A stretch of DNA of 64,000 bases from Bacteroidota bacterium (GCA_017860455.1 JAGDMF010000006.1:87028-151027); one strand, 5' to 3'; positions 4,172-17,468 are shown, counted from the first letter of the stretch. Translations and numbers: made by a program. The notes: generated from the sequence alone by a model not told the origin.

Positions 4172-4256
4172 ATTTTCATTGGGTTACCCCTGTTTTTCGG
4201 ACTAGAATTAGTTTAATTTATGGTTGCAAATATACATTTTTTATTAATGTGCTAAT

Positions 4257-4325
4257 TAGGCGAAAGGGACAAGGGGAAAGGGGGAAGGAAGAAGTCGGCA
4301 GACGGCGGTCGGCAGACTTATTTAT
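4257..4325 (+). repeat. partial composite repeat (GGCGAAAGG-type words + GTCGGCAGAC words + ttattta)
   Basis: aggcgaaagggacaaggggaaagg...gtcggcagacggcggtcggcagacttattta matches the first modules of 105-303 and 13289-13617. Confidence 0.75.
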
Positions 4326-4336
4326 AACATAATCCA

Positions 4337-4762
4337 TTAGTTTTTTATTTGTGGAAAATACTCATTTTTATGACCACAATTCAAACAAACTTCTCTATGA
4401 ACACATAATAAGTGACCACACTTTTTACATTTCCATTTTTCTTTCTCCAAATCAATGAATTGTTGTAATCCCATCTCTTTTATTTTCTCCAGGTTTTGAA
4501 TTGGACTTTCCCCATATTTTAAAATATAACGTTTATCCAAATCTTTAATCCGCCTACAAGGAAACTTAATGCACTCATAGCAGAGTAATGCTTCGTTTCC
4601 CTTTTTTTCAGCACATGACTTAATGCTACATACAGTACAATGATATGGCTTATTCCCGGTATTTAAGCATCCGACACATTTATTTTTCTCTCGCTGATAA
4701 CCAAGACAAATATCACAGATAACGCCACAAGGAGCGATACTTAAATGTTTCATCATTTTCAT
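4337..4762 (-). CDS. DUF3795-like cysteine-rich protein
   Basis: 141-aa ORF with clustered CxxC motifs (CGVICDIC, CVGC, CTVCSIKSC, CYECIKFPC, CKKCGH, CLNC). Confidence 0.65.
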   Translation of the reverse strand: MKMMKHLSIAPCGVICDICLGYQREKNKCVGCLNTGNKPYHCTVCSIKSCAEKKGNEALLCYECIKFPCRRIKDLDKRYILKYGESPIQNLEKIKEMGLQQFIDLEKEKWKCKKCGHLLCVHREVCLNCGHKNEYFPQIKN

Positions 4763-4953
4763 TTCAAATTATTTAATATTACTCCGACCATTACTCATTC
4801 ATTTTTAGTTTTATAATACAACGTTTTCTTCTTTGTCAGTCCTTTTTGTAAGTCAATTAAAATTAATGTTTTCATGTTGTAATTTAGGTTTGGTGTATGA
4901 AGTATTACGGCAAATTGTATGAGTAGTGGCAGATTGCGTGGTAGTTACATGTC

Positions 4954-4978
4954 AAACCGCTACGCAGTTTGAGCGGGC
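4954..4978 (-). terminator. weak candidate terminator hairpin downstream of the PIN-like gene
   Basis: The minus strand reads CCGCT-caaactgcgt-AGCGG followed by TTTG. The stem is only 5 bp. Confidence 0.3.
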
Positions 4979-5015
4979 TACAGACCTTGATATTTAGCAC
5001 ATTGCCTGCCATTAC

Positions 5016-6125
5016 TTATACAAAATGTTGTGCATAGTTTTTATTTATTTTATTTATCTGACAACTCTTAACATTTAAATCATTGTCCACTATCAATGAC
5101 ATTGACATCGATACTAAAATTTCAGTTTCTGCAAGCATTACCCATTTATTCCAATCAGAATCTTGAATAGAAATATGTTTGGTATTTTCCATTGACCAAT
5201 ATTCACTTTTTTCTATAAAAAAATCTATCATTGTATTTACGTCAAATTCAACATCTACTAAGAAATCCGTTGCATTCAGTTTTTTTACTGAAATAATTTT
5301 TTCTTCAAAGTCGTCGTAAATACTATTTACAGTCGGTTCGCTAGAATCATATTCACGTTCTTCATCACTTTCGAATAATTCTGAACCAACATATTTATCA
5401 AATAAATAATCAGTTATTACCGTATGTAAATCAAAATTCCAAAGCTCTTTTTGTTTTAATTTCTTTTCGAAGCTTTTAGATTGAGCAAAGAATAGCTTAG
5501 TCTGTTTGTCATTAAACTCACTCAAACTTGGATATACAATAATAGATTTCGAATCATAATCTTCGTTTTCCAATTCAGATATCAAATCGGGATGTAATTC
5601 ATATTCACTGGTTGCAAAATCTTTGTAATTATTTGAAATAAACACAAGTTCAGGTTGAGAAACGGCACTCTCACAGTCAGTCAATAATTCTTTAATATTT
5701 TCCCAAATAAGACAGTCCCTATAACCTTTTTCATTTGAATTGAATGGTTTTATCTTATTGATAGATTTATTGGCTAAAAATTTATGTTCTGTTTTTGGAT
5801 ATTTGATTACAATAATTGAATTATCTTTTACAATCTTTAATAAGTGCTTTTGATAAGTCGAAACAGATTTATCAATCATAGCTTTTGTTAGAGGATTTTT
5901 TTCTTTCTCTCGTGTTAGTTTTTTAAATGCGTTTAATTCTGAATCTATTATTCGTACTGAATCTTCAAGTCTTTTACTGAATTTATTAACAACTTCATCC
6001 AATACAACTTCGGGGATGTAAATAATAACATCTCCCTTTTTCGCGCTTTCAAATAGAAGTTTAAAATTGGTCGTCACTAACCAAAAATCAGCGATTATAA
6101 TATTTGAATCAAGTACTACTTTCAT
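5016..6125 (-). CDS. PIN-like domain protein (DUF4935-type), candidate defence nuclease
   Basis: 369-aa ORF. The N-terminus VVLDSNIIIADF...YIPEVVLDEV, plus GYRDCLIWENI and FISNNYKDF, fit the PIN-like DUF4935 pattern. The C-terminal ~170 aa is unassigned. Confidence 0.7.
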   Translation of the reverse strand: MKVVLDSNIIIADFWLVTTNFKLLFESAKKGDVIIYIPEVVLDEVVNKFSKRLEDSVRIIDSELNAFKKLTREKEKNPLTKAMIDKSVSTYQKHLLKIVKDNSIIVIKYPKTEHKFLANKSINKIKPFNSNEKGYRDCLIWENIKELLTDCESAVSQPELVFISNNYKDFATSEYELHPDLISELENEDYDSKSIIVYPSLSEFNDKQTKLFFAQSKSFEKKLKQKELWNFDLHTVITDYLFDKYVGSELFESDEEREYDSSEPTVNSIYDDFEEKIISVKKLNATDFLVDVEFDVNTMIDFFIEKSEYWSMENTKHISIQDSDWNKWVMLAETEILVSMSMSLIVDNDLNVKSCQINKINKNYAQHFV

Positions 6126-6146
6126 TTTGTCAAATTATGCACAACG

Positions 6147-6492
6147 GTTGGCGGTATGGTTAGTTGCCGATTTCGAAGCACTTTCCTATCAAGTTACAAG
6201 TACTTTTGATACGAGCTGTGCCGCTCGAATACGCACTGCACCGGCAATTAACTATACCGCGTGTTACCGCCTGGTGTTCTGTCCTCCAGTCCTGTAAACC
6301 ATTGTCTTTATTTACTTTACATTTCATTGTCTTGTTACTTTTATCTTTACTGTCGGCTTGTGTGTTTGCGTTTTTTATTTTTTTAAGTGTCGGCAAATTT
6401 TTTAATTCAATTTCTCTTGGTGTGTTGGCTTTGCAAGCTCTTTGACAAAGCTTTGGTTAAAGCGTTGGCTCGTGGGGCTTTGGCAATGTGCT
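6147..6492 (-). promoter_or_regulatory. array of GCCRAC-core motifs in the 415-bp spacer between the 802-aa gene and the PIN-like gene
   Basis: GTYGGC occurs on the plus strand at 6147, 6352, 6389, 6424 and 6464, all in the same orientation, plus GGCAATGTGCT at 6482-6492. The spacer is visibly more GC-rich than its flanks. Confidence 0.5.
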
Positions 6493-6541
6493 TTCAAGTG
6501 AGTAGGCTTATAAAAATATTTATCTTTCATAGCAATACAAA

Positions 6542-8950
6542 TTATTCTTCTTTTTCTTCTTCATCGTTTGTTTTCATTGATAATAAGCGTTTTTTGACAG
6601 CATCTCTTTCTTTTGGGTCTTGCACATCTTTAGAGAGAAAATCAGCCATGAAAGTTTTAAAATATTCATTAAAACGCTTTACATAGTCCTTTGCTTTCTT
6701 AGCTAAACTTTCATCTGTATAATTTATCATTGTTCTTAATGCCAAATAGATTCTATAGAGTAAGTTGAAGTTGTTTTCATCAAAAGCCCTGTTGTATAGG
6801 ATTTCAATTTCATCAGGAATTTGCATAAAACACTTTTGAATTGACTGAACAATTGGTTCAATAATTCCTTCATGACCACTAACTATATGGCCAACTCCAT
6901 CCCAATCAAAACTTTCATAGTGTTTCATGTTTTTTAATGACCTTACATCTGCTCTACGAAGAAAGTGCTTATTAGAACCAACTTCATTAAGAAGATAGAG
7001 GTGGAATGCATAAACGGAATATTCTATATTGCCAACTAATCCCAATGGATAACCAGCTAACTGAGATAAAATTGCATAGGGTAAAAAATCGGAAACAAAA
7101 CCTCCTTCATCCATATCGTCATCAAAATTAATTTGGATGTGTCCGATACCTTCTGAATACATCAACACTTTAGTTCCTTTTCCAATTTTTTCTAAATGTG
7201 GTGGAATTTTTATAAGTTCTTGAACTAATTCGGAGAATAGATTCACTTCACCATTATGGGCTAATTTCATTAAAACACCAGTTGCTACAATATCGCAATA
7301 TGGTATTGGAGTTACAGTATCAATAAGTGTTTTACAAATTTCTTGAATTGGTCTTTTTTCTTTGCCTTCTATTAAAATTATTTCTGTTACCGATTCAATT
7401 GAATGTTTTGCAACAAGTTCTGGAATTTTAGGATAGATGACAGTCATTCCATTTCTTAGTTCCCGTAAGACAACGACTGATGATTTTATGAGCTTTTCAA
7501 AATCATCGGGAAAATTCTTCTTGAAGGTTTCTTTTGAAATTGCACCGCTACCAGATGCCACAATACTTAAATCAGCATCTGCTTTTCTCAATTCAAACTC
7601 AGCAAAAAAACAAGATGCAATTTTGCGATACAAGTCGTGAACTTGTCTTGTATAAGTTTTGTTTTCTGAAATAGTATTCAAAAGGGTGAAGTCGGGAACG
7701 GCAATGACTTTTGTGAATTGCCCTGCTTCAATATCTCCGGTAAGAAGAGAAGCTAAATGTCTTACAATTCTTGGCTCACGATATTCAGGTGTAAAGTGTC
7801 CACCATGTTCAATTAAAACTTGAAATTTGTTTAGCAGTAAATTATTTGTTTCGTTGTATTCATCGTCATCAAGCTCATCCAACTTGACTATTTTACTTTG
7901 CTCACCGATGAGTGTCTTGTATTGCCTGTTTGCAACAAATGCTATTTCCTTGAAATTGAATTCATCTATGCTGTAAAGAGTATGATGATTAACTCCTTTG
8001 AAGATGTCAATAAGCTCAATAATTTCTGCTTTGATTACTTCGGGGATTTCATTATTGAAATTGTCTAAGAGCAAATAGAATTTACTATCAGGTGAATTGC
8101 TTAATGAGTTAATTAGCCATTCTCTAATTTTGTCTTTGTTAATTGAAATTTTAGAACTTTCAGAAAAATGATTTGCTAATTGCTGAAAGATAGAATAGTT
8201 GTGGTCGATACAATCTAAATATAGAATAAAGCTTTTAGCTGATTTAGTTTTTGTAAAAAACTCGTAAAGTAGATTTGTTTTTCCACTAAAAGCAGAACCT
8301 ATTAAACCGACTAATGCAGCTTTATTCGAAAAATGAGTATGAATTTTAGCGACTACTTTTCTATCAATTCTAAAATCAAGGCAAATGGGTTTAGTGAAGT
8401 CGTCAATTGTTCCAAAGAATCTTTCAAATCTTTTTGCACTGATTTGATTAATTACTTGTGAGAATAATTCGGGTTCATTATTCAGTAATAGATTGACTGC
8501 ATCTTTGAAATCATTTGTTGCAAGTTGAAAGGAATTGTCAGTTAGTTTTTGAATAAATTCAAAGTCAAGATTATTGGCTTCAATTTTTTCTTTCGAATAT
8601 GTATTGTAAAACTGATTGTCTATGCCATTTGAAATTAATGTCAGTGGTGGCATTGGATGCAACAATCTTGCATACGAAATTCCTTGGTCAACATCCTCTT
8701 GAGTAAGTTTTAGACCTTCTTTTTTTAATTCAAGCAAAATTGTATTCACATTTCCTATTGTTAATAGAATATCAAATATTGCTCTTGATGGATATTGGGA
8801 GGGTTCTTTCAAATCCACAAGAACATGATGATGTCCAAATTGTATACTGAAGGATTTTTGATGTTCTACTTTTACTTCTTTAAAGGTTGGAAAGACTGAA
8901 GTTAATACTCTATCAATTCTTGCCTCTAGCGTTGCTTCATTTACTGCCAT
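6542..8950 (-). CDS. HsdR-N-like PD-(D/E)xK nuclease domain + P-loop NTPase + large uncharacterised C-terminal region
   Basis: 802-aa ORF. The N-terminus has D60...E74-L-K76...Q84...Y93...SNG(107-109), matching the type I restriction HsdR N-terminal-like pattern. Walker A is GSAFSGKT (aa 218-225, nt 8276-8299) and Walker B-like is FYLLLD (aa 291-296). The gene starts 46 nt after the gajB-like stop. Confidence 0.7.
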   Translation of the reverse strand: MAVNEATLEARIDRVLTSVFPTFKEVKVEHQKSFSIQFGHHHVLVDLKEPSQYPSRAIFDILLTIGNVNTILLELKKEGLKLTQEDVDQGISYARLLHPMPPLTLISNGIDNQFYNTYSKEKIEANNLDFEFIQKLTDNSFQLATNDFKDAVNLLLNNEPELFSQVINQISAKRFERFFGTIDDFTKPICLDFRIDRKVVAKIHTHFSNKAALVGLIGSAFSGKTNLLYEFFTKTKSAKSFILYLDCIDHNYSIFQQLANHFSESSKISINKDKIREWLINSLSNSPDSKFYLLLDNFNNEIPEVIKAEIIELIDIFKGVNHHTLYSIDEFNFKEIAFVANRQYKTLIGEQSKIVKLDELDDDEYNETNNLLLNKFQVLIEHGGHFTPEYREPRIVRHLASLLTGDIEAGQFTKVIAVPDFTLLNTISENKTYTRQVHDLYRKIASCFFAEFELRKADADLSIVASGSGAISKETFKKNFPDDFEKLIKSSVVVLRELRNGMTVIYPKIPELVAKHSIESVTEIILIEGKEKRPIQEICKTLIDTVTPIPYCDIVATGVLMKLAHNGEVNLFSELVQELIKIPPHLEKIGKGTKVLMYSEGIGHIQINFDDDMDEGGFVSDFLPYAILSQLAGYPLGLVGNIEYSVYAFHLYLLNEVGSNKHFLRRADVRSLKNMKHYESFDWDGVGHIVSGHEGIIEPIVQSIQKCFMQIPDEIEILYNRAFDENNFNLLYRIYLALRTMINYTDESLAKKAKDYVKRFNEYFKTFMADFLSKDVQDPKERDAVKKRLLSMKTNDEEEKEE

Positions 8951-8995
8951 ATAAAAGAATGATTATTGTTTATTACACTAAATACATTTCATAAA

Positions 8996-10912
8996 TCATA
9001 AATAAATTACATCCCATTCTTCACTTGCATCAAAATATGCCTTATGGTTTTCAGTGTATCTATCCTTGTGAACTGCTAAACAAATAAAATGTGTTGCCCT
9101 AGTCATTGCAACATAACCAAGTGGTAATCTTTTTTTAAAAGCATCATTAGTACGTTGTCTTGTTCGCTGTCTATCTGTGCTGATAATAAACTCTAAAATT
9201 TTGCTACCAATGTCGTAAACACGGTTGTAGGTTTCAAGATAAAGAGTCGCTGAATGTGTTTCGCCTTTTACTCCATGAATTGTATCAAAATGAATTTGCA
9301 CTTCCTGTCCATTCGTAGTAAAATGGTAAATTCTGTTTTCTACCTTTTCACTTGCTACTTCAACTTCAGGGTTTGTAAAAAATTGTTTTAGGTCGTCATT
9401 TACTTGTCCACCAAAAGTTGCAAGCAAATCTGAAACATAGGTTTCAATTTCCACCTTCAAAATTTCAGTTTTGGAAATTGTTGTAATCCATTTTGTAATG
9501 TTATCATTCATCTTTTTGGAGATACTTAAATCGTCCAACGAATTTAGATATTGATACAATGTAAAAGGCGTAAAGTAAAATCCTGTAACGGGATGCTTGA
9601 CTTTGCAAAGGCGTAAGCATTTGCAAAAAATACTTAGCAATGACTTTCTTACTTCATTAACATTTCTACTTTGTAAAGCCAACTGATTTGCGTTTTCAAG
9701 AAATGAAGTAATGTTTGAGAAATCTTTTTTGTTATAACCACGATTAAACTCATTCCAATAGGAGTTAATATTTAAACGGGAATCACTTAACCTTGCTCCA
9801 ACAGCTTTACATGGTTTTCCCTTATGGAGATTATGTTGGATAAGGAGTTCTCCAAACTTGTCTTTTACTTTTAGAATAGAGTTGTTGTCAAATAAAATGA
9901 TTGTCGGTTTCAAAGGTGTTGGGTTAATCCAACCAGTCATTACTTGAGGAGCAACGCAAATATCTTTTACTACTTGAACAATGTTCTCTGAAATTCTTGT
10001 TGTTTCGGTTAATTGCAAATCTGAATTTATTTTTGGTTGCCATTCATTTTGTTTATCAGATGATGAATAATTGAAAATTGACTGGTTGATGTCACCAATT
10101 TTTTGAACTATAGCAGAAGTGCCATCACACAAATAGCTTATGAGTTCCGATTGGTGAGTTTCCATGTCTTGCATTTCGTCAATAAAAATCAATGGAAATC
10201 TTTTAATGAATAGGTCTTTCAACTGTGGGTTTTCTCTGAGGTATTTGAAAGCAATTGAATATGCCTCATCATATTTAACGAATCCATCTTTTAATAATTT
10301 ATTTTTCGCATCTTCAATTTTTTTATAGTGAATTAGCATCTTGTCTTGGGAGATTCCATCAATTGTAAAAGGGCTTACTTCATTGATTGTCTTTGATACA
10401 CTAAAGTTGTGCATATTAAAAGATAAATAACCAATTTCGTCAACACCCTTTGCACTTAAAAACAAAGCCGTTCCGTAAAGGGACTTGAATTTATTTATCT
10501 CTTTACAGTAAGAATCTGTATCAGTAATATTTGGTGATTGTTTGAACTCATTTTTGTAAGCAGGAATAGTAAAGAATTTATCAACTACAGATTGAATTGT
10601 TCCGAAATGATTTGGATAATTGAAGTAGAAATTAGAAAAGGAATCCAGTTTGCTTTTAATTTCTGCAACTGCAACATTTGTGTGTGTGATTACACACACA
10701 CCTTGTTTAAATGATTTAGGAATTTTATTCGTTAAAATAATAAGTTTAGCAGCAAGAGTTGTTGTTTTGCCACTTCCAGGACAAGCTTGAATGTCGGTGC
10801 TATCCCAAAATCGGATAATCTTTTTTTGCCTTTCATTGAATTTAAAACCAAAATGATTTTCAACGAAAGCAATATCTTCATCGGTAATATTTAATTTTTT
10901 GAAATCAAACAT
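8996..10912 (-). CDS. gajB: UvrD/Rep-family helicase, GajB-like
   Basis: 638-aa ORF with Walker A CPGSGKTT, Walker B LIFIDEMQD, TIHGVKGETH and VAMTRA helicase motifs. It overlaps the upstream OLD-family gene by 8 nt. Confidence 0.85.
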   Translation of the reverse strand: MFDFKKLNITDEDIAFVENHFGFKFNERQKKIIRFWDSTDIQACPGSGKTTTLAAKLIILTNKIPKSFKQGVCVITHTNVAVAEIKSKLDSFSNFYFNYPNHFGTIQSVVDKFFTIPAYKNEFKQSPNITDTDSYCKEINKFKSLYGTALFLSAKGVDEIGYLSFNMHNFSVSKTINEVSPFTIDGISQDKMLIHYKKIEDAKNKLLKDGFVKYDEAYSIAFKYLRENPQLKDLFIKRFPLIFIDEMQDMETHQSELISYLCDGTSAIVQKIGDINQSIFNYSSSDKQNEWQPKINSDLQLTETTRISENIVQVVKDICVAPQVMTGWINPTPLKPTIILFDNNSILKVKDKFGELLIQHNLHKGKPCKAVGARLSDSRLNINSYWNEFNRGYNKKDFSNITSFLENANQLALQSRNVNEVRKSLLSIFCKCLRLCKVKHPVTGFYFTPFTLYQYLNSLDDLSISKKMNDNITKWITTISKTEILKVEIETYVSDLLATFGGQVNDDLKQFFTNPEVEVASEKVENRIYHFTTNGQEVQIHFDTIHGVKGETHSATLYLETYNRVYDIGSKILEFIISTDRQRTRQRTNDAFKKRLPLGYVAMTRATHFICLAVHKDRYTENHKAYFDASEEWDVIYL

Positions 10913-12791
10913 TGGTTACATACTTAATCGCATCTACTAAATATTTTAAGTGAGGGTCTTTCAAAATATCTTCAACATCAACTTTGGAGCTATTCAGAAT
11001 TCTTGAAAAAATTTGTGCGACCACTGCCTTAGATGCTTGCTTGCGTTCTAATGGAGCATAAATCTCTACCGCAATTTCAATATCGCTTATGCCTTCAGTT
11101 TTCCAGCGTTCTAAATCTTCCTCACATTTTTCTGTAATGCCTTTGCAAACTTCTTTGGTTGCATCTTCTTGAAGGTCATTAGTGGCTAATGCTAAGAGAA
11201 CTGATTTATGAATTAGATTGCGAAGACAACTTCTTGCAATCTCATATTCAAGTGTCCAAGTATTCGTAATGAATACCTGAACATCACCACCACTGTATTT
11301 GGCTTTTTTCTTTGAAACTATTTCAGCAATTTCTTGTGTAGAATATTCGTCTTCTGTCTTACGGTTATCACTAAGCAAACTAACTTGTTCAATCTCTCCT
11401 GTAAGACGCCTTTTGATTTCGTAGGTAAATTCCTTTCCTTCTTTTGGTGGAATATCTCTGTCTGTAATGCAGGAAACTTTTATTCCAATACCATTACCAT
11501 CTTTTCTCTGAAATATTTTTGCATATCGCAACAGTGCTGTGCTTCCAACATTTACAACTGAAACGCCATGTTTATGTAATGGAAATCCGATGTATTCAGC
11601 AAGTGTTGGAATAATTAGATTCTCTGCATCACCTTCAACTATTATCACACCGTTTGCGAAAAATAAGTTAGCCTTTGTGTTGTCCAAAAACCTTCTGAGA
11701 AATTCATAATCTCCATTTGCTAATTCGGTTTCGCCTTTTCTTAAAGAGTAGGCATTACTGTCTTTACAAAGAATTAAATTACTGAGGTCAACTTTTGATG
11801 CTAATGAATTACTGTGAGAAGAAATGATACTTTGAAACCCTAAACTTTTTGATTGCTTGTTAAGAAAGTCAATAAGATTTAATTGAGATTGAGGATGCAG
11901 ATGGGCTTCTATTTCTTCAATCAAAGAAAGTTTCAGCCCTACATAACCGCTATCCTTTTTCAGTAGCAACATTTCAGCAGCAATGAATAATAAGTTGTTT
12001 GACCCCAAACCTAAGTTTGATTCGTTTGTCTTTGACAAACCTTGCAATTCAAGTTTTTCAAGTATTCTGCCTAAATCGTTTTGAGCAATTCCAAACTTTG
12101 ATGAAAGTGGATTATTTAATAACGAAAACTCTTTCAGATAGCTTAAATTAATTGTGTCAGATACTTGCTTTCCTTCTTTGTTTTCAAAGTAGTCAGTTAC
12201 TTCAAGGTTTGCTTTATCCATTGTTTCTTCCAATGGATGTCTTGTGCTGTCTTGCTTTTGAAAAATTTCGTAAGCAGCAAGAATCTGAGAAAGCCGTGAA
12301 CCCTTTCTGGGTGCTAATTCAAACTCAGCATCTCTTAATGGTTTTAAGTAAGTTACCTTTAATTTGTTTTTTGCTTCACCGCTTATCATTCCACTTTCTT
12401 CGTCTTCACCAGCTTTCACATCATAATATACCTCTGAAAGAGAATTGCTTTTTTCCTTTCGTCTGCCAGTCAAAGTAAGTTTCAAATAATATTTTTCACC
12501 GCTTATGGATAACCATTCTAAGAATGCAGCCGCTTCATCAGGGTTAAGGTCATAAAATGTGCAAACTATTTTGAGTTCGGTCGCTCTTGTTGTTCCGTCA
12601 GTATAGAAATCATCTTTGTCAAGTTTTATCCAATCGTTGCTGTGAGTGCCAGTAACAAATTTTATAGCATCAATGATTGAAGATTTGCCAGAATCATTTT
12701 CTCCGACAAGAAGATTTAAACCGCTTTGAAATTCTAAATCGACTTTTTTAAATTGTCTAAAGTTTTCAATATGGATTTTCCCTAAATACAT
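10905..12791 (-). CDS. gajA: OLD-family ATP-dependent endonuclease (ABC-type ATPase + Toprim), GajA-like
   Basis: 628-aa ORF with Walker A GENDSGKS, Walker B/H-loop LSLIEEIEAHLHP, and Toprim motifs IIVEGDAENL and CITDRD. Confidence 0.85.
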   Translation of the reverse strand: MYLGKIHIENFRQFKKVDLEFQSGLNLLVGENDSGKSSIIDAIKFVTGTHSNDWIKLDKDDFYTDGTTRATELKIVCTFYDLNPDEAAAFLEWLSISGEKYYLKLTLTGRRKEKSNSLSEVYYDVKAGEDEESGMISGEAKNKLKVTYLKPLRDAEFELAPRKGSRLSQILAAYEIFQKQDSTRHPLEETMDKANLEVTDYFENKEGKQVSDTINLSYLKEFSLLNNPLSSKFGIAQNDLGRILEKLELQGLSKTNESNLGLGSNNLLFIAAEMLLLKKDSGYVGLKLSLIEEIEAHLHPQSQLNLIDFLNKQSKSLGFQSIISSHSNSLASKVDLSNLILCKDSNAYSLRKGETELANGDYEFLRRFLDNTKANLFFANGVIIVEGDAENLIIPTLAEYIGFPLHKHGVSVVNVGSTALLRYAKIFQRKDGNGIGIKVSCITDRDIPPKEGKEFTYEIKRRLTGEIEQVSLLSDNRKTEDEYSTQEIAEIVSKKKAKYSGGDVQVFITNTWTLEYEIARSCLRNLIHKSVLLALATNDLQEDATKEVCKGITEKCEEDLERWKTEGISDIEIAVEIYAPLERKQASKAVVAQIFSRILNSSKVDVEDILKDPHLKYLVDAIKYVTNV

Positions 12792-13013
12792 TTAGCAGTG
12801 TTTTATTATTTTAAATTCATAAACCTTGAAATAAGCGTTGGCAAAAAATGGCTCTTTTGATTTTGCCGAAGGATTGGCTTTGTGTGTCGGGGCAAAAGCA
12901 AATGTGCCATTGTGGGTCGGCAAATGTTTAAAAGAATGTGCAGTTGGCAAAAAATAAAAAACATCAGGTCGGCTTTCTTGTCTTGTCAATATTTCTTTTT
13001 TCTGTCCTTTCAC
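12792..13013 (-). CDS. doubtful 73-aa upstream ORF abutting the gajA-like start
   Basis: Its TAA stop is immediately followed by the gajA ATG (TAAATG). The peptide's LPTAH/LPTH/APTH repeats are simply the translated TTGCCRAC DNA motif, so it may be non-coding. Confidence 0.2.
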   Translation of the reverse strand: MKGQKKEILTRQESRPDVFYFLPTAHSFKHLPTHNGTFAFAPTHKANPSAKSKEPFFANAYFKVYEFKIIKHC

Positions 13014-13064
13014 AATGGTTTACTTTTCAATTTTCTATATCGTTGTCTGTCTCTTACACTTGGC
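12837..13064 (-). promoter_or_regulatory. array of GCCRAC-core motifs in the long leader upstream of the gajA-like gene
   Basis: GTYGGC-type sites occur on the plus strand at 12837, 12873 (ATTGGC), 12886 (GTCGGGGC), 12916, 12943, 12968 and 13059 (CTTGGC), all in the same orientation as in 6147-6492. Confidence 0.5.
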
Positions 13065-13172
13065 GGTAACTTGTTTATAACCGCTACTCTTCCGCCTCTA
13101 TATTACGCTTATCTGCCCAAATGGGTTGGATAACCGTATGTTTTAATTGCATTTTTGTTTTTTTAATAATTA

Positions 13173-13180
13173 CAAAAATA
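13173..13180 (-). promoter_or_regulatory. Bacteroidota -7 promoter box (TAnnTTTG), candidate promoter of the defence cluster
   Basis: Plus strand reads CAAAAATA. This is the only exact TAnnTTTG match I found on the minus strand between 12792 and 13230, ~380 nt upstream of the gajA-like ATG. Confidence 0.4.
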
Positions 13181-13288
13181 AACTGTTTTAAATATTGTCT
13201 AAAGGACTAGTGAAATTCTGAGTAATTCGAGTGTGATAAAATTCGAATGCAAATATAAACAAATTTTTAATATTCAAATAAAAAAATT

Positions 13289-13617
13289 AGGGCGAAGGGC
13301 GAAAGGCAATAGAAAAAGTCGGCAGACGGCGGTCGGCGGTCGGCAGACTTATTTAGAACGTCGAACGTTTAACGTCGAACCGCTCCTGTCTCCCGTCTCC
13401 AGTCTCCCGTCACCAGTCTCCCGTCACCAGTCTCCCATCACCAGTCTCCAGTCTCTAGTCCCCGCATTAGGTCGTAGGCCAGATACCCCGCAAGTTGAGC
13501 TGCTTAGGGGATGACGGTTCGGGCAGAGCGACGGAGGAGCTACTGCCCGGCCGATCAGACCCTGGCAGCGAAACGAGGAGTATGGGCCGGAGACCGACGG
13601 CGAGCCTGCGAGCCGGA
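13289..13617 (+). repeat. composite modular repeat, copy 2 (word modules 13289-13463 + complete GC-rich core 13464-13617)
   Basis: Same module order as 105-303. The core is near-identical to 60387-60543, and the last 41 nt are identical. Confidence 0.85.
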
Positions 13618-14531
13618 GCACACATGTAAATGTAGTCGTGATGACGATAATTTAATACGGAATCTACCGTTGATGTGGCCGGAATACGGATCGGTCCTGG
13701 TGGTAAACCGGTGTACAAATAGGTGTTGTACGGTGAATCGGTCATCAAATGCTCTTCGGTTATTCTGGTAATTCTAAAATCTTGTAAGGCAAATTTTACC
13801 GTCGGATCTGCCTGTAACTTCATCCCCTTTATTAAGCGATTGATATACAATCCTGCGATCAGCCCTTTTTCTACCTCTTTGAAGTTTTCCTCTTCTACAA
13901 TAGAGGCTAAAGTCACCACTTGCGAGCGACTAAGTCCGATCTTTTGCGCCTGTTGATCTCTTTTCTCATTCCAGAATCGGTTGTATTGCTTGTACATCGA
14001 GCTGAAAAACTGTTCTGCAGTGATGTCGTAATATAATTCATACGTATTGGGAATAAAAATGGATATCGTTGTCTCGGGAGTAAGCCCAAAAGTGCTTAGA
14101 AATGTACGATTGTCTAATAAGTTTTCCAGTTCATTCCTTTCAAACAGAAACTTACCATCGAGTTTTTTGACCAGCTGCTCTTTGGTTCTGATGTTGTTAA
14201 AAGTGAAACGTACCGGAACATGTTGCCCTCTTCGTAACATTTTGATTAGGGAAAAGTTACTCTCATTTTCTTTAAAAGTGTATTTCCCCTTTTTGATATT
14301 TCCTTTAAAATCAAGTATTTGTGCAGCAATTCTGAAAGTGAAAAAACTTTTCACCTGTCCGCTTTCCTGAATATCCTGCATGACAGTTTCAAAAGTGGAA
14401 TCTTCGGTAATGATTAGTTTTCTAAAATTTCCTTCACCATTGGGAATGAAAAAAAGGAGGATAACAACAACAATGCCTAAAAATAAAAAGGCACCAATTC
14501 CGCCACCAATCTTTTTCTTACTTAATTTCAT
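13467..14531 (-). CDS. mltG: endolytic murein transglycosylase MltG (YceG-like), 3' end replaced by repeat-derived sequence
   Basis: N-terminal TM helix, ASIVEEE catalytic region and SPYNTYLYTGLPPGPI...DYIYMCA match MltG. The last ~44 codons (PARRLAVGLRPILLVSLPGSDRPGSSSS...) are read out of the GC-rich repeat. Confidence 0.8.
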   Translation of the reverse strand: MKLSKKKIGGGIGAFLFLGIVVVILLFFIPNGEGNFRKLIITEDSTFETVMQDIQESGQVKSFFTFRIAAQILDFKGNIKKGKYTFKENESNFSLIKMLRRGQHVPVRFTFNNIRTKEQLVKKLDGKFLFERNELENLLDNRTFLSTFGLTPETTISIFIPNTYELYYDITAEQFFSSMYKQYNRFWNEKRDQQAQKIGLSRSQVVTLASIVEEENFKEVEKGLIAGLYINRLIKGMKLQADPTVKFALQDFRITRITEEHLMTDSPYNTYLYTGLPPGPIRIPATSTVDSVLNYRHHDYIYMCAPARRLAVGLRPILLVSLPGSDRPGSSSSVALPEPSSPKQLNLRGIWPTT

Positions 14532-16376: not shown

Positions 16377-17354
16377 CTATTTCTTCTTCTTCCCAAACAC
16401 CGAAACCTGGATATATCTTTCCGGATTCTCTTTGATATCGATCAGCAATTTATTGAGATTATCGGTAGAGTTGGCTAAGTTTTTGTATAATTCTTTATCA
16501 TTCACTAATTTACCAAGATCGCCTTCCCCTTTATTGATCTTTTCGATCACTTGTTGAAGTTCTGTGATGGTTTGATTGGCATTTAAGATCACCTGAGCCA
16601 AATCTTCTTTGGCAATATCGCTGGATATTTTATCAAAATTATCGATAATAGCTTTTAGTTTAGGAGCTTCCGTTTTTAAAGTTAAAGCAAATTCATCCAA
16701 ATTGGTCACAATTTTACCAAATTTAGATCTGTTTTGATTCAATAACAGATTTAATTCGGCCGTTGTAGATTCTAAGTTGGTAAAGATGTTTTTTAATGAG
16801 GATGGACCATTTTCAGAATGTAAAATATCTTTCAATTCTAAGGCAACTGTATCAATTGATGACATAATTGAGCCCAACTGATCTTTAATTCCATCCAATC
16901 CATCCGTAACAGCTGGGATTAGAACAGCGGTCATATTATCCTCATCTTCTGCCATTTTGGTACTGGTTCCCAATTTTAGATTGATAACCAAACCCCCTAA
17001 AATATCTTTTGCACCCAATTCAAATCGGGAATCTGAAGGAATATTAATCTCTTCATAAATATTTAAAGTCGCTTTTACTCTGGCAGGAACCTCATCTGTT
17101 AATTCAATTTTAACCACTTTTCCGATTTTGAAACCATTCACAAAAACTCCCGTTCCTGTAGGTAATCCTTTTGCGTTATCAAAAATCGCATATAAAGTTT
17201 TGTTGTAACCAAACACCTGATTTCCCATTAAAAAATTAGCACCTAAATAAAACACAATCAGTGCTGATAACCCGAACAATCCCACTTTAATTGCTTTTCT
17301 GTTCTTTTTGGTATCAATAGATCTCTTTCCGTTCTCTTTTTCTTCAGATTTCAT
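16377..17354 (-). CDS. MlaD/MCE family protein
   Basis: TM helix, an MCE domain (GLPTGTGVFVNGFKIGKV), and a long coiled C-terminus. The start was set at MKSEEK (17354), downstream of the -7 box at 17380-17387. Confidence 0.8.
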   Translation of the reverse strand: MKSEEKENGKRSIDTKKNRKAIKVGLFGLSALIVFYLGANFLMGNQVFGYNKTLYAIFDNAKGLPTGTGVFVNGFKIGKVVKIELTDEVPARVKATLNIYEEINIPSDSRFELGAKDILGGLVINLKLGTSTKMAEDEDNMTAVLIPAVTDGLDGIKDQLGSIMSSIDTVALELKDILHSENGPSSLKNIFTNLESTTAELNLLLNQNRSKFGKIVTNLDEFALTLKTEAPKLKAIIDNFDKISSDIAKEDLAQVILNANQTITELQQVIEKINKGEGDLGKLVNDKELYKNLANSTDNLNKLLIDIKENPERYIQVSVFGKKKK

Positions 17355-17379
17355 ATTCTTTTCATTAAATTTTAGCCTG

Positions 17380-17387
17380 CAAAAATA
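17380..17387 (-). promoter_or_regulatory. Bacteroidota -7 promoter box
   Basis: Plus strand reads CAAAAATA, ~26 nt upstream of the ATG at 17354. It is preceded (in gene orientation) by GCTTATTA words. Confidence 0.5.
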
Positions 17388-17460
17388 CAAAATAATAAGC
17401 TAATAAGCGAATGTGAAAATAAGCTAATTTTTATTTAACTTTTGGTGTGATTTTTTGGTT

Positions 17461-17468
17461 TATTTTTG
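17461..17468 (+). promoter_or_regulatory. Bacteroidota -7 promoter box
   Basis: TATTTTTG lies 22 nt upstream of the czcD-like ATG. Confidence 0.5.

Follow-up and report, generated by a model that had tools for sequence, protein, structure and literature searches.

The spacer between the 802-aa gene and the PIN gene

The DNA studied here is a 64,000-nt stretch from a Bacteroidota bacterium (GCA_017860455.1, JAGDMF010000006.1:87028-151027), which we call the window. Every gene in its 1-12.8 kb region is carried by the minus strand, among them the Gabija genes gajA and gajB, a gene encoding an 802-aa protein and a gene encoding a PIN_12-domain protein (Table 1). The subject of the analysis, which was computational throughout, is the 416-nt gap at 6126-6541 between the end of the 802-aa open reading frame (ORF; 6542) and the start of the PIN_12 ORF (6125), together with a conserved hairpin element in this gap, which resembles the attC recombination sites of integrons.

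An initial annotation had described the gap as unusually long within its gene cluster and as relatively GC-rich, with hairpins, five GCCRAC motifs on the gene strand and no ORFs other than mutually overlapping ones on both strands, and had proposed that it might harbour an embedded non-coding RNA (ncRNA) or a decayed gene. The descriptive part of this account holds. The GC content of the spacer is 0.39-0.41, compared to 0.26-0.33 in the flanking genes, and the only ORFs, of 76, 78, 93, 41, 99 and 42 aa, overlap one another on both strands. All five GCCRAC motifs are on the minus strand (6147-6152, 6352-6357, 6389-6394, 6424-6429 and 6464-6469), while about 0.065 are expected per 416 nt per strand according to shuffled sequences; in the whole window 31 motifs were counted on both strands, the shuffle mean being 20. 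The listed stems were all recovered, displaced by 0-2 nt. The reported absence of a TAnnTTTG box is correct for the gene strand, but not for the plus strand, which has one match, TACTTTTG at 6201-6208. This match to the TAnnTTTG -7 box lies within the variable tip of the attC-like site described below and is probably due to chance. Overlooked were the dominant long-range helix, in which 6241-6260 pairs with 6151-6170, and a second copy of the element at 4886-5050.

Table 1. Positions of genes, recombination-site elements and other features in the window (CM, covariance model).
Feature	Position	Strand	Evidence and remarks
gajA	10905-12791	-	PADLOC GajA, E=5e-205; cargo of cassette 1
gajB	8996-10912	-	PADLOC GajB, E=7e-149; cargo of cassette 1
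802-aa gene, HsdR_N-like (weak N-terminus) and ATPase protein	6542-8950	-	Pfam; cargo of cassette 1
PIN_12-domain gene, 369 aa	5016-6125	-	Pfam PF16289, E=2.8e-26; cargo of cassette 2
attC-like site closing cassette 1	6123-6286	-	CM R1, 142 bits, E ~1e-25
R'' box GGCGGTAAC of spacer site	6263-6271	-
5' arm of spacer site	6241-6260	-
Variable terminal structure of spacer site	6171-6240	-	Contains the two small hairpins of the initial annotation
3' arm of spacer site	6151-6170	-
R' box GTTGTGCAT of spacer site	6137-6145	-	Crossover presumed within CGTT
Start of PIN cassette, right half of R' and short leader before ATG, TTGTGCATAATTTGACAAA	6126-6144	-	19 nt; complementary to own R'' ATGCACAAC; L157 homology from 6147
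attC-like site closing PIN cassette, directly after PIN gene	4886-5050	-	CM R1, 152 bits
R'' box ATGCACAAC of PIN-cassette site	5027-5035	-
Arms of PIN-cassette site	5005-5023 and 4915-4933	-
R' box CCGTAATAC of PIN-cassette site	4902-4910	-	Degenerate
attI-like junction GGTTATAAACAAG/TTACCGCC, presumed start of cassette 1	13062-13082	-	TTACCGCC exactly complements R'' at 6263-6271
Second half of non-coding tail of cassette 1, A-rich	6287-6423	-	Two GCCGAC motifs; blastn and nhmmer
GCCRAC hairpin module, ~75 nt	6424-6500	-	CM R2, 31.1 bits, E=5e-5; nhmmer module B; two of the five motifs
Better-conserved module copy, 5' leader of cassette 1 directly before gajA	12837-12915	-	CM R2, 78.6 bits
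Stem CGAGC/GCTCG (initial annotation)	6212-6227
Stem TATCAA/TTGATA (initial annotation)	6187-6211
Stem CACC(A)GGC/GCCGGTG (initial annotation)	6239-6276
Palindrome CAAAGCTTTG (initial annotation)	6446-6455		Inside the 6424-6500 hairpin module

A conserved long-range hairpin

In the loci L005 (Ancylomarina; NZ_SADB01000009.1), L006 and L007 (Microbacter; OY782761.1), the stop codon of the 802-aa homologue is followed by a sequence of about 150 nt resembling window positions ~6130-6280 (minus strand), and a diverged copy is found at the equivalent place in L001 (Sediminibacterium). The same element also precedes the 802-aa gene in L005 and L007, and the covariance model (CM) R1 detected weaker copies after neighbouring genes. 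In the first six copies, the long-range helix showed compensatory changes in 13 of 30 pairs. Metagenome and viral loci were then retrieved with one 23-nt pattern of the element (3 contigs from the viral collection and at least 120 from metagenomes), and in total the element was found in at least about 260 copies in at least 130 loci.

The alignment of related spacers and the covariation test proposed in the initial annotation gave a strongly positive result. When 150 copies are aligned, 94% of the 17-bp outer helix is paired, and all four Watson-Crick pair types are in use. Each pair shows compensatory changes and occurs in several Watson-Crick types, and G-U makes up about 1% of the cells in 16 of the 17 pairs. 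The observed values were reached by none of 500 shuffles, and shifting the 3' partners by 1-3 columns lowered the pairing from 87% to 30-40%. The CM E-values are rough, and alignments fitted to a CM are biased towards the structure of the model.

Two short boxes enclose the helix. On the coding strand AAC (R'') is located 5' and GTT (R') 3', and the distance from box to box is 125-166 nt. The AAC columns are kept in 145, 146 and 144 of the 150 copies (box AAC-A overall, 144-147) and the GTT columns in 148, 148 and 145 (box C-GTT-R overall, 145-148). The base right after GTT, a purine in 148 of 150 copies, is the sole constrained base of that flank. The arms, on the other hand, vary freely in sequence yet stay complementary. 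One of the five GCCRAC motifs of the spacer (6147-6152) falls in the attC-like consensus ..CCGCC-AAC-CGTT. The extended consensus RYYYAAC/GTTRRRY is fitted by 17 R'' boxes and 12 R' boxes out of 131 each, about 8 being expected by chance. The consensus helix is devoid of bulged extrahelical bases and contains two near-invariant 1x1 oppositions, in which A (138 and 146 of 150 copies) faces C (134 and 145 of 150); a third A/C opposition, A42/C300, adjoins the boxes. By analogy with integrons, the A/C oppositions may play the role of the bulged extrahelical bases.

As for the stems of the initial annotation, the two small hairpins fall in the variable tip, where the CM alignment is very gappy, and the CACC(A)GGC...GCCGGTG stem is not conserved in the family and competes with the long-range helix.

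Copies of the element delimit gene cassettes

Among the loci listed, 68 have two or more copies of the element, and in none of the 68 do the copies lie on mixed strands. The units between successive sites (n=124 among these loci) have a median length of 1190 nt, and in 117 of the 124 the longest ORF is co-oriented with the sites. The arrays can be dense: L124 contains 10 copies in 14.6 kb and L129 contains 7 copies in 5.5 kb.

A relation between neighbouring sites was also found. The 5 nt located 5' of AAC complement the 5 nt that follow GTT in the preceding site (4.09 of 5 on average, perfect in 61 of 88 cases), while the match of the same 5 nt to the GTT flank of their own site is 2.23 of 5 and that of a random control 1.72 (Wilcoxon P=4e-12). 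This complementarity, referred to below as the cassette-circle rule, is as expected if the units circularise and recombine inside GTT, like integron cassettes.

The PIN gene of the window illustrates such a unit. Window positions 6147-4907 are 94% identical to positions 5979-7219 of L157, while the neighbouring genes are wholly different. The homology opens at CCG/TTGTGCAT and closes at the CCGT of the next site, and both breakpoints correspond to CGTT boxes. Further, the R'' box ATGCACAAC of the PIN cassette is the complement of the cassette's own start GTTGTGCAT (6137-6145), and the final codons of the PIN gene extend into the R'' box and the 5' arm of the following site. Cassette 2 is the segment from 6144 to ~4908, carrying the PIN gene. 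The premise that the PIN gene forms one cluster with its neighbours was not borne out: a tblastn search found a PIN relative in none of 28 loci fetched with the 802-aa family, and a 95%-identical PIN gene is part of the array L157-L160, which contains neither Gabija nor the 802-aa gene.

An identical PIN gene was found on L156, a public-assembly contig of 1172 nt that extends 44 nt upstream of the ATG and 18 nt beyond the stop codon. The assembly thus breaks at both attC-like repeats, and such arrays are likely to be under-assembled in short-read metagenomes.

A large cassette with Gabija and the 802-aa gene

The complement of the R'' box GGCGGTAAC, GTTACCGCC, is present in the 64-kb window only upstream of gajA, at 13062-13070 (minus strand), and as the reverse complement at 6263-6271. 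It is preceded by GGTTATAAACAAG, and this region can be aligned to L146, where the matching sequence immediately follows the recombinase gene. A junction of the form TATA(A/T)AC(A/G)AG/TT, continued by a sequence complementary to the first cassette's R'' box, follows the recombinase genes in L146, L152 and L153, and the junction in the window is homologous to it. A recombinase gene beside the window junction (13062-13082) is absent. Based on the R'' complement at 13062-13070 and on the attI-like junction shared with these three loci, we read the region from ~13069 to ~6145 as one cassette of ~6.9 kb. The cargo of this cassette 1 is gajA, gajB and the 802-aa gene, with a non-coding tail of 255 nt.

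Related loci contain comparable units. In L152 (OZ260100.1), a junction at 11236 and a first site at 17300-17461 enclose a multi-gene first cassette of ~6 kb. In L005, the 802-aa gene alone is located between two attC-like sites and constitutes a single-gene cassette. L001, a close relative, has a 771-aa gene inserted between gajB and the 802-aa gene, and its next cassette is a different one; by eye, the product of the 771-aa gene (L001, 3673-5988) looks dynamin-like.

The sequence upstream of gajA was compared to the tail of cassette 1. The 255-nt tail and the region upstream of gajA share the hairpin module described below and its motifs, but no long repeat, and an origin as direct repeats was rejected. 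A candidate Bacteroidetes-type promoter that may read into the array, proposed from the consensus match TTTG...TATATTTG, is located at 13250-13278 (minus strand), ~190 nt upstream of the attI-like junction.

A GC-rich repeated element was noted in three minus-strand copies (13285-13466, 4254-4328 and 124-258). Tandem GGGAGACTGGTGAC units of ~14 nt come first, followed by GTCTGCCGACCGCC..., a run of pyrimidines and an AT-rich segment that terminates in a Bacteroidetes-type -7 box, TATATTTGCA. The position directly upstream of the attI-like site, at which one would look for a recombinase gene, is occupied by one of the copies. The repeat explains five further GCCGAC matches.

Tyrosine recombinases next to the arrays

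No tyrosine recombinase gene was found in the 64-kb window. In six other loci (L007, L146, L050, L086, L152 and L153), a co-oriented gene for an Xer/IntI-like recombinase is located immediately upstream of the array, and in L007 this array holds the 802-aa gene. The R'' match in L007 coincides with the 3' end of a weak attC-like match located upstream (4986-5151) and is thus a cassette junction and not an attI.

The best family match of these proteins is NF040815 (XerA/'integron integrase'), which the L146 protein matches with 229.7 bits at a cut-off of 220. The match to TIGR02249 (integron integrase) amounts to 170-220 bits, below the cut-off of 265, and is in two pieces. When compared to VchIntIA (PDB 2a3v), 21 residues are present where IntI has 63 (residues 179-241), and all six array-adjacent recombinases are ~41 residues short when compared to IntI1. 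The catalytic residues R-K-H-R-H-Y are kept in all six, and a ~90-aa N-terminal domain is common to them. In the AlphaFold model (predicted local distance difference test, pLDDT, 80), this domain has the order beta-beta-alpha-beta-beta-alpha-beta, and the model matches IntI and XerA about equally. At E<1e-20, the family numbers at least 8000 proteins, which come from Bacteroidia, Flavobacteriales, Cyclobacteriaceae and Ignavibacteria.

A shorter Xer-like recombinase of 280 aa, without the N-terminal domain, is encoded at an array end in L099 (691-1533), where an IS91-family transposase comes after it. It belongs to a different element and, being IS91-associated, was left out as an array enzyme.

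A second hairpin module with GCCRAC motifs

Two of the remaining GCCRAC motifs of the spacer belong to a smaller hairpin module, which has a better-conserved copy in the leader of cassette 1. Four further GCCRAC motifs are present in the region 12837-12973. The consensus of the module consists of a GGCACATTTG-stem, the loop CCGACACACAAAGCCAAC and CAAAAGAGCC, then ..TTGCCAAC; an outer and an inner stem enclose the loop, and GCCAAC follows the 3' arm. CM R2 found the two copies in the window and 19 elsewhere. In these 21 copies, 93% of the cells are paired, nearly all of them Watson-Crick, with compensatory changes in 13 of 17 pairs.

The module is usually located at the cassette start, 0-100 nt after an attC-like or attI-like site, and sometimes just before a site, as in the spacer. 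ORFs following it include those of HsdR, HsdM, DNA methylases, a KAP NTPase, XRE-type regulators and Gabija. A role as promoter was rejected, since by eye the Bacteroidetes -33/-7 arrangement is missing. Most likely, although we say so with low confidence, the module is a cassette-borne expression or stability element; alternatively, it is an accessory binding site for the recombinase. The module at 6424-6500 is the sole part of the spacer that could be an RNA element. The sequence between the module and the attC-like site (6287-6423) is homologous to sequence directly preceding attC-like sites in L128, L001 and L131.

The spacer as the probable tail of a mobile cassette

Taken together, we are confident that the spacer is not an RNA gene but the non-coding tail at the 3' end of a large mobile cassette, itself part of an integron-like array. 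According to this interpretation, the recombination site is the ~130-nt imperfect hairpin between the ...AAC(A) and (C)GTT... boxes, and it would be recognised as a folded single strand by a tyrosine recombinase related to those located next to the arrays in other genomes. The strand antisense to the genes is the likely substrate, in which the three conserved A/C oppositions would become G.T wobbles. Strand exchange presumably takes place inside CGTT. Recombination between two attC-like sites would then release a circular cassette, while recombination with the attI-like site (13062-13082) would lead to cassette insertion. The strand used, the acting enzyme and the present activity of the sites in the window we infer; the conservation and structure of the element, the organisation of the arrays and the boundaries of the cassettes we observe.

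The choice of strand is suggested by folding predictions. The antisense strand folds more stably than the sense strand in 125 of 146 informative copies (mean difference 2.1 kcal/mol with DNA parameters, P=3e-19), and the fixed A/C oppositions, which are mismatches on the sense strand, are G.T wobbles on the antisense strand. Combined with the near absence of G-U pairs from the main helix and with the exchange breakpoints, these findings make a folded site of single-stranded DNA more plausible than a sense RNA.

Nevertheless, a functional RNA of the gene strand has to be considered, be it a 3'-untranslated region structure, a terminator or stabiliser, or a small RNA of a defence system. Such an RNA would be co-transcribed with the genes, with which the element is co-oriented, and it is in line with the strong covariation, with the many sense-strand G-U pairs of the inner helices and with a T-run after the smaller hairpin module in some copies. 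We consider it very unlikely, however, since an RNA function predicts neither the exact breakpoints of horizontal exchange nor the cassette-circle rule, the antisense strand is the more stable one, two of the fixed A/C oppositions pair on the antisense strand only, all but one of the 17 main-helix pairs are poor in G-U, and the element follows many kinds of unrelated genes. In addition, an Rfam 15 scan of window positions 4500-14000 with E up to 10 gave nothing inside 6126-6541 or 12792-13082. Of the embedded ncRNA of the initial annotation, the conserved structured non-coding sequence thus remains, while an ncRNA of a Gabija/802-aa/PIN operon is contradicted by the cassette boundary, the complementarity of the R'' boxes, the antisense fold and the scarce G-U pairs.

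Comparison with integrons and Xer systems

The cassette arrays described here resemble integrons in several respects. The cassettes are in tandem, co-oriented and mostly promoterless, and each is closed by a long imperfect hairpin site. The core triplets are AAC and GTT, R'' precedes R' on the coding strand, and the sites are homogeneous within the family. A crossover in GTT implies, as in integrons, that each cassette begins with the right half of R'. The cargo, with defence systems, GNAT-type and toxin-like genes, is also comparable (see bioRxiv 10.1101/2024.07.02.601686). The window itself, which has two sites and lacks a recombinase, is similar to a cluster of attC sites without an integron-integrase (CALIN).

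In other respects the arrays differ from integrons. Their recombinase lacks the IntI-specific additional domain (I2 helix), which is regarded as key to the recombination of folded single-stranded sites (PMC7790495, PMC4792948), has the extra N-terminal domain of ~90 aa and is encoded in the same direction as the cassettes. Their sites depart from the extended R-box consensus and have three fixed A/C (G.T) oppositions where integrons have bulged extrahelical bases, and their hosts are Bacteroidota. In Bacteroidetes, IntegronFinder 2.0 detected only integrases without cassettes and one complete integron, in Salinibacter (PMC9024848), and Bacteroidota have been listed as a clade 'previously found without any integrons' (bioRxiv 10.1101/2024.07.02.601686); integrons were also reported in Bacteroidota (PMC8618304).

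In sequence, the recombinase is closest to archaeal XerA (PDB 5hxy, 4a8e; NF040815), to which it can be aligned from end to end. As in the pdif modules of Acinetobacter, gene units are bounded by Xer sites. The dif and pdif sites of XerC/D, however, are double-stranded, ~28 bp in length and composed of two 11-bp arms, while the sites described here are ~130-nt hairpins with freely covarying arms. Unlike with dif and pdif, all sites of an array share one orientation, and the units follow the cassette-circle rule.

In Treponema-type integrons, the integrase is co-oriented with the cassettes and is a true IntI with the additional domain. The position of the recombinase gene upstream of the array and in the same direction is thus shared with the arrays described here; the presence of a true IntI with its additional domain is not. 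With regard to Gabija, gajA and gajB are intact and adjacent in the window. The spacer is not a part of this system, which is here cargo beside the 802-aa gene.

These comparisons bear on the possibility that the window holds an ordinary integron, in which canonical attC sites are served by a canonical IntI encoded elsewhere in the genome and the adjacent Xer-like recombinases are bystanders. The architecture, the polarity, the AAC/GTT boxes, the arrays and the cassette-circle rule would all fit, as would the reported integrons of Bacteroidota (PMC8618304) and the name of the NCBI family, 'site-specific tyrosine recombinase/integron integrase'. Against bystanders, however, speaks the attI-like junction that matches the first R'' directly after the recombinase gene in L146, L152 and L153. 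All six adjacent recombinases lack the ~41 aa at the position of the additional domain and score below the TIGR02249 cut-off. On the side of the sites, RYYYAAC/GTTRRRY is about as frequent as by chance (17 and 12 of 131), and the consensus structure has no bulged extrahelical bases. Considering also that IntegronFinder 2.0 yielded almost nothing in Bacteroidetes (PMC9024848), we judge an ordinary integron to be very unlikely.

A dispersed palindrome similar to repetitive extragenic palindromes or miniature inverted-repeat transposable elements, having landed between genes, or a small gene with a Cys-rich ORF of 55 to 78 aa (6160-6396) is extremely unlikely: although the element is palindromic and repeated, the 78-aa ORF overlaps it and H6Q25_588 is apparently numbered there between _587 and _589, the copies never occupy both strands of a locus among the loci listed, they follow co-oriented ORFs at cassette-size spacing, their flank matches the flank of the previous copy, a result that transposition would not yield, the indels between copies are not multiples of three, PADLOC has no match for the ORF, and an open frame of any kind is present in only 48 of 239 copies. 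This last count also led to the rejection of the small Cys-rich ORF (6160-6326/6396) as a gene and, together with a conservation that follows base pairing and not codons, it disposes of the decayed gene considered in the initial annotation.

Several points weigh against the mobile cassette tail, which we prefer. The second site in the window has GTA in place of GTT, which is why its R' box at 4902-4910 is degenerate, and since the window contains no recombinase gene, its sites may be relics. With 6.9 kb, cassette 1 is unusually large for a cassette, and the function of the GCCRAC hairpin is not accounted for. Adjacency alone connects the enzyme with the sites, and recombination itself is deduced from sequence comparisons. 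The metagenome sample over-represents one subfamily, as it was retrieved with a single 23-nt pattern of the element. Finally, G-U pairs of the sense strand are frequent in the inner part of the element as aligned with the CM, and they could point to a sense-strand or RNA role for the tip; the structure to which this alignment was fitted had, however, been derived from the sense strand.

As to the wider system, we see the arguments for and against as evenly balanced when we propose that Bacteroidota hold an abundant, undescribed integron-like cassette system. It would be characterised by a recombinase of the Xer/IntI clade without the I2 additional domain, to which current models attribute the origin of single-stranded attC recombination, and with a conserved ~90-aa N-terminal domain, by ~130-nt hairpin sites with fixed G.T wobbles in place of bulged extrahelical bases, by whole defence operons as single cassettes (Gabija with the 802-aa nuclease/ATPase gene, restriction-modification, GmrSD, KAP NTPases), and by a second conserved hairpin module. 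In the full-text literature no account of such a system was found; the coverage was incomplete, so its novelty is not proven.

Cargo and neighbouring genes

The 802-aa protein belongs to a family of ~135 proteins, mostly from Bacteroidota. It has no match in NCBIfam and only a weak one in PADLOC (MTase_II, E=0.0015). The family has an HsdR_N-like nuclease N-terminus, and a P-loop/AAA_22 domain was also found in some relatives. Because the gene forms a single-gene cassette in L005 and has varied partners in other loci, it is a candidate stand-alone defence gene. Neither the PIN protein nor the small spacer ORF has a match in PADLOC and NCBIfam.

In the public annotation of the source metagenome-assembled genome, the PIN gene is H6Q25_587 and the 802-aa gene is H6Q25_589. 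The gap in the numbering implies that a feature H6Q25_588 was presumably annotated in the spacer, probably the 78-aa ORF. This ORF, which overlaps the recombination site, is most probably not a real gene.

Side observations were made on other cassettes and their surroundings. In L152 (17457-21134), cassettes with defence cargo encode a GmrSD_N protein and a helix-turn-helix gene together with a type IIG-like restriction-modification gene. Near-perfect tandem repeats of ~40 nt (AAAAACATTGCAGGAGGCATCCTAAAATTTACCAGGCACCC) are located directly downstream of the attC-like site in L006 (8530-8800). In the window, two small minus-strand genes (314-751 and 786-1130) have homologues in cassette arrays elsewhere (36% identity in L153/L154 and 44% in L135), and a DUF3795 gene (4337-4762) is of the same family as cassette genes in L153. 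Since no attC-like site of the present family was detected between these genes, the array may continue with decayed or different sites.

Implications

The analysis changes the gene model of the locus. Gabija and the 802-aa gene constitute one mobile unit, and since the PIN gene is carried by an independent cassette, a 'system' of four genes should not be assumed. The spacer ORF is most likely spurious.

Bacteroidota are considered to be almost devoid of integrons (PMC9024848; bioRxiv 10.1101/2024.07.02.601686). If our proposal is true, a large family of cassette arrays served by a recombinase without the IntI domain would represent either a solution that arose independently or an intermediate between Xer and IntI that has survived, and the evolution of the integron reaction would become directly testable. 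Last but not least, a major phylum would then hold a large stock of cassette-borne defence genes that has yet to be mined.

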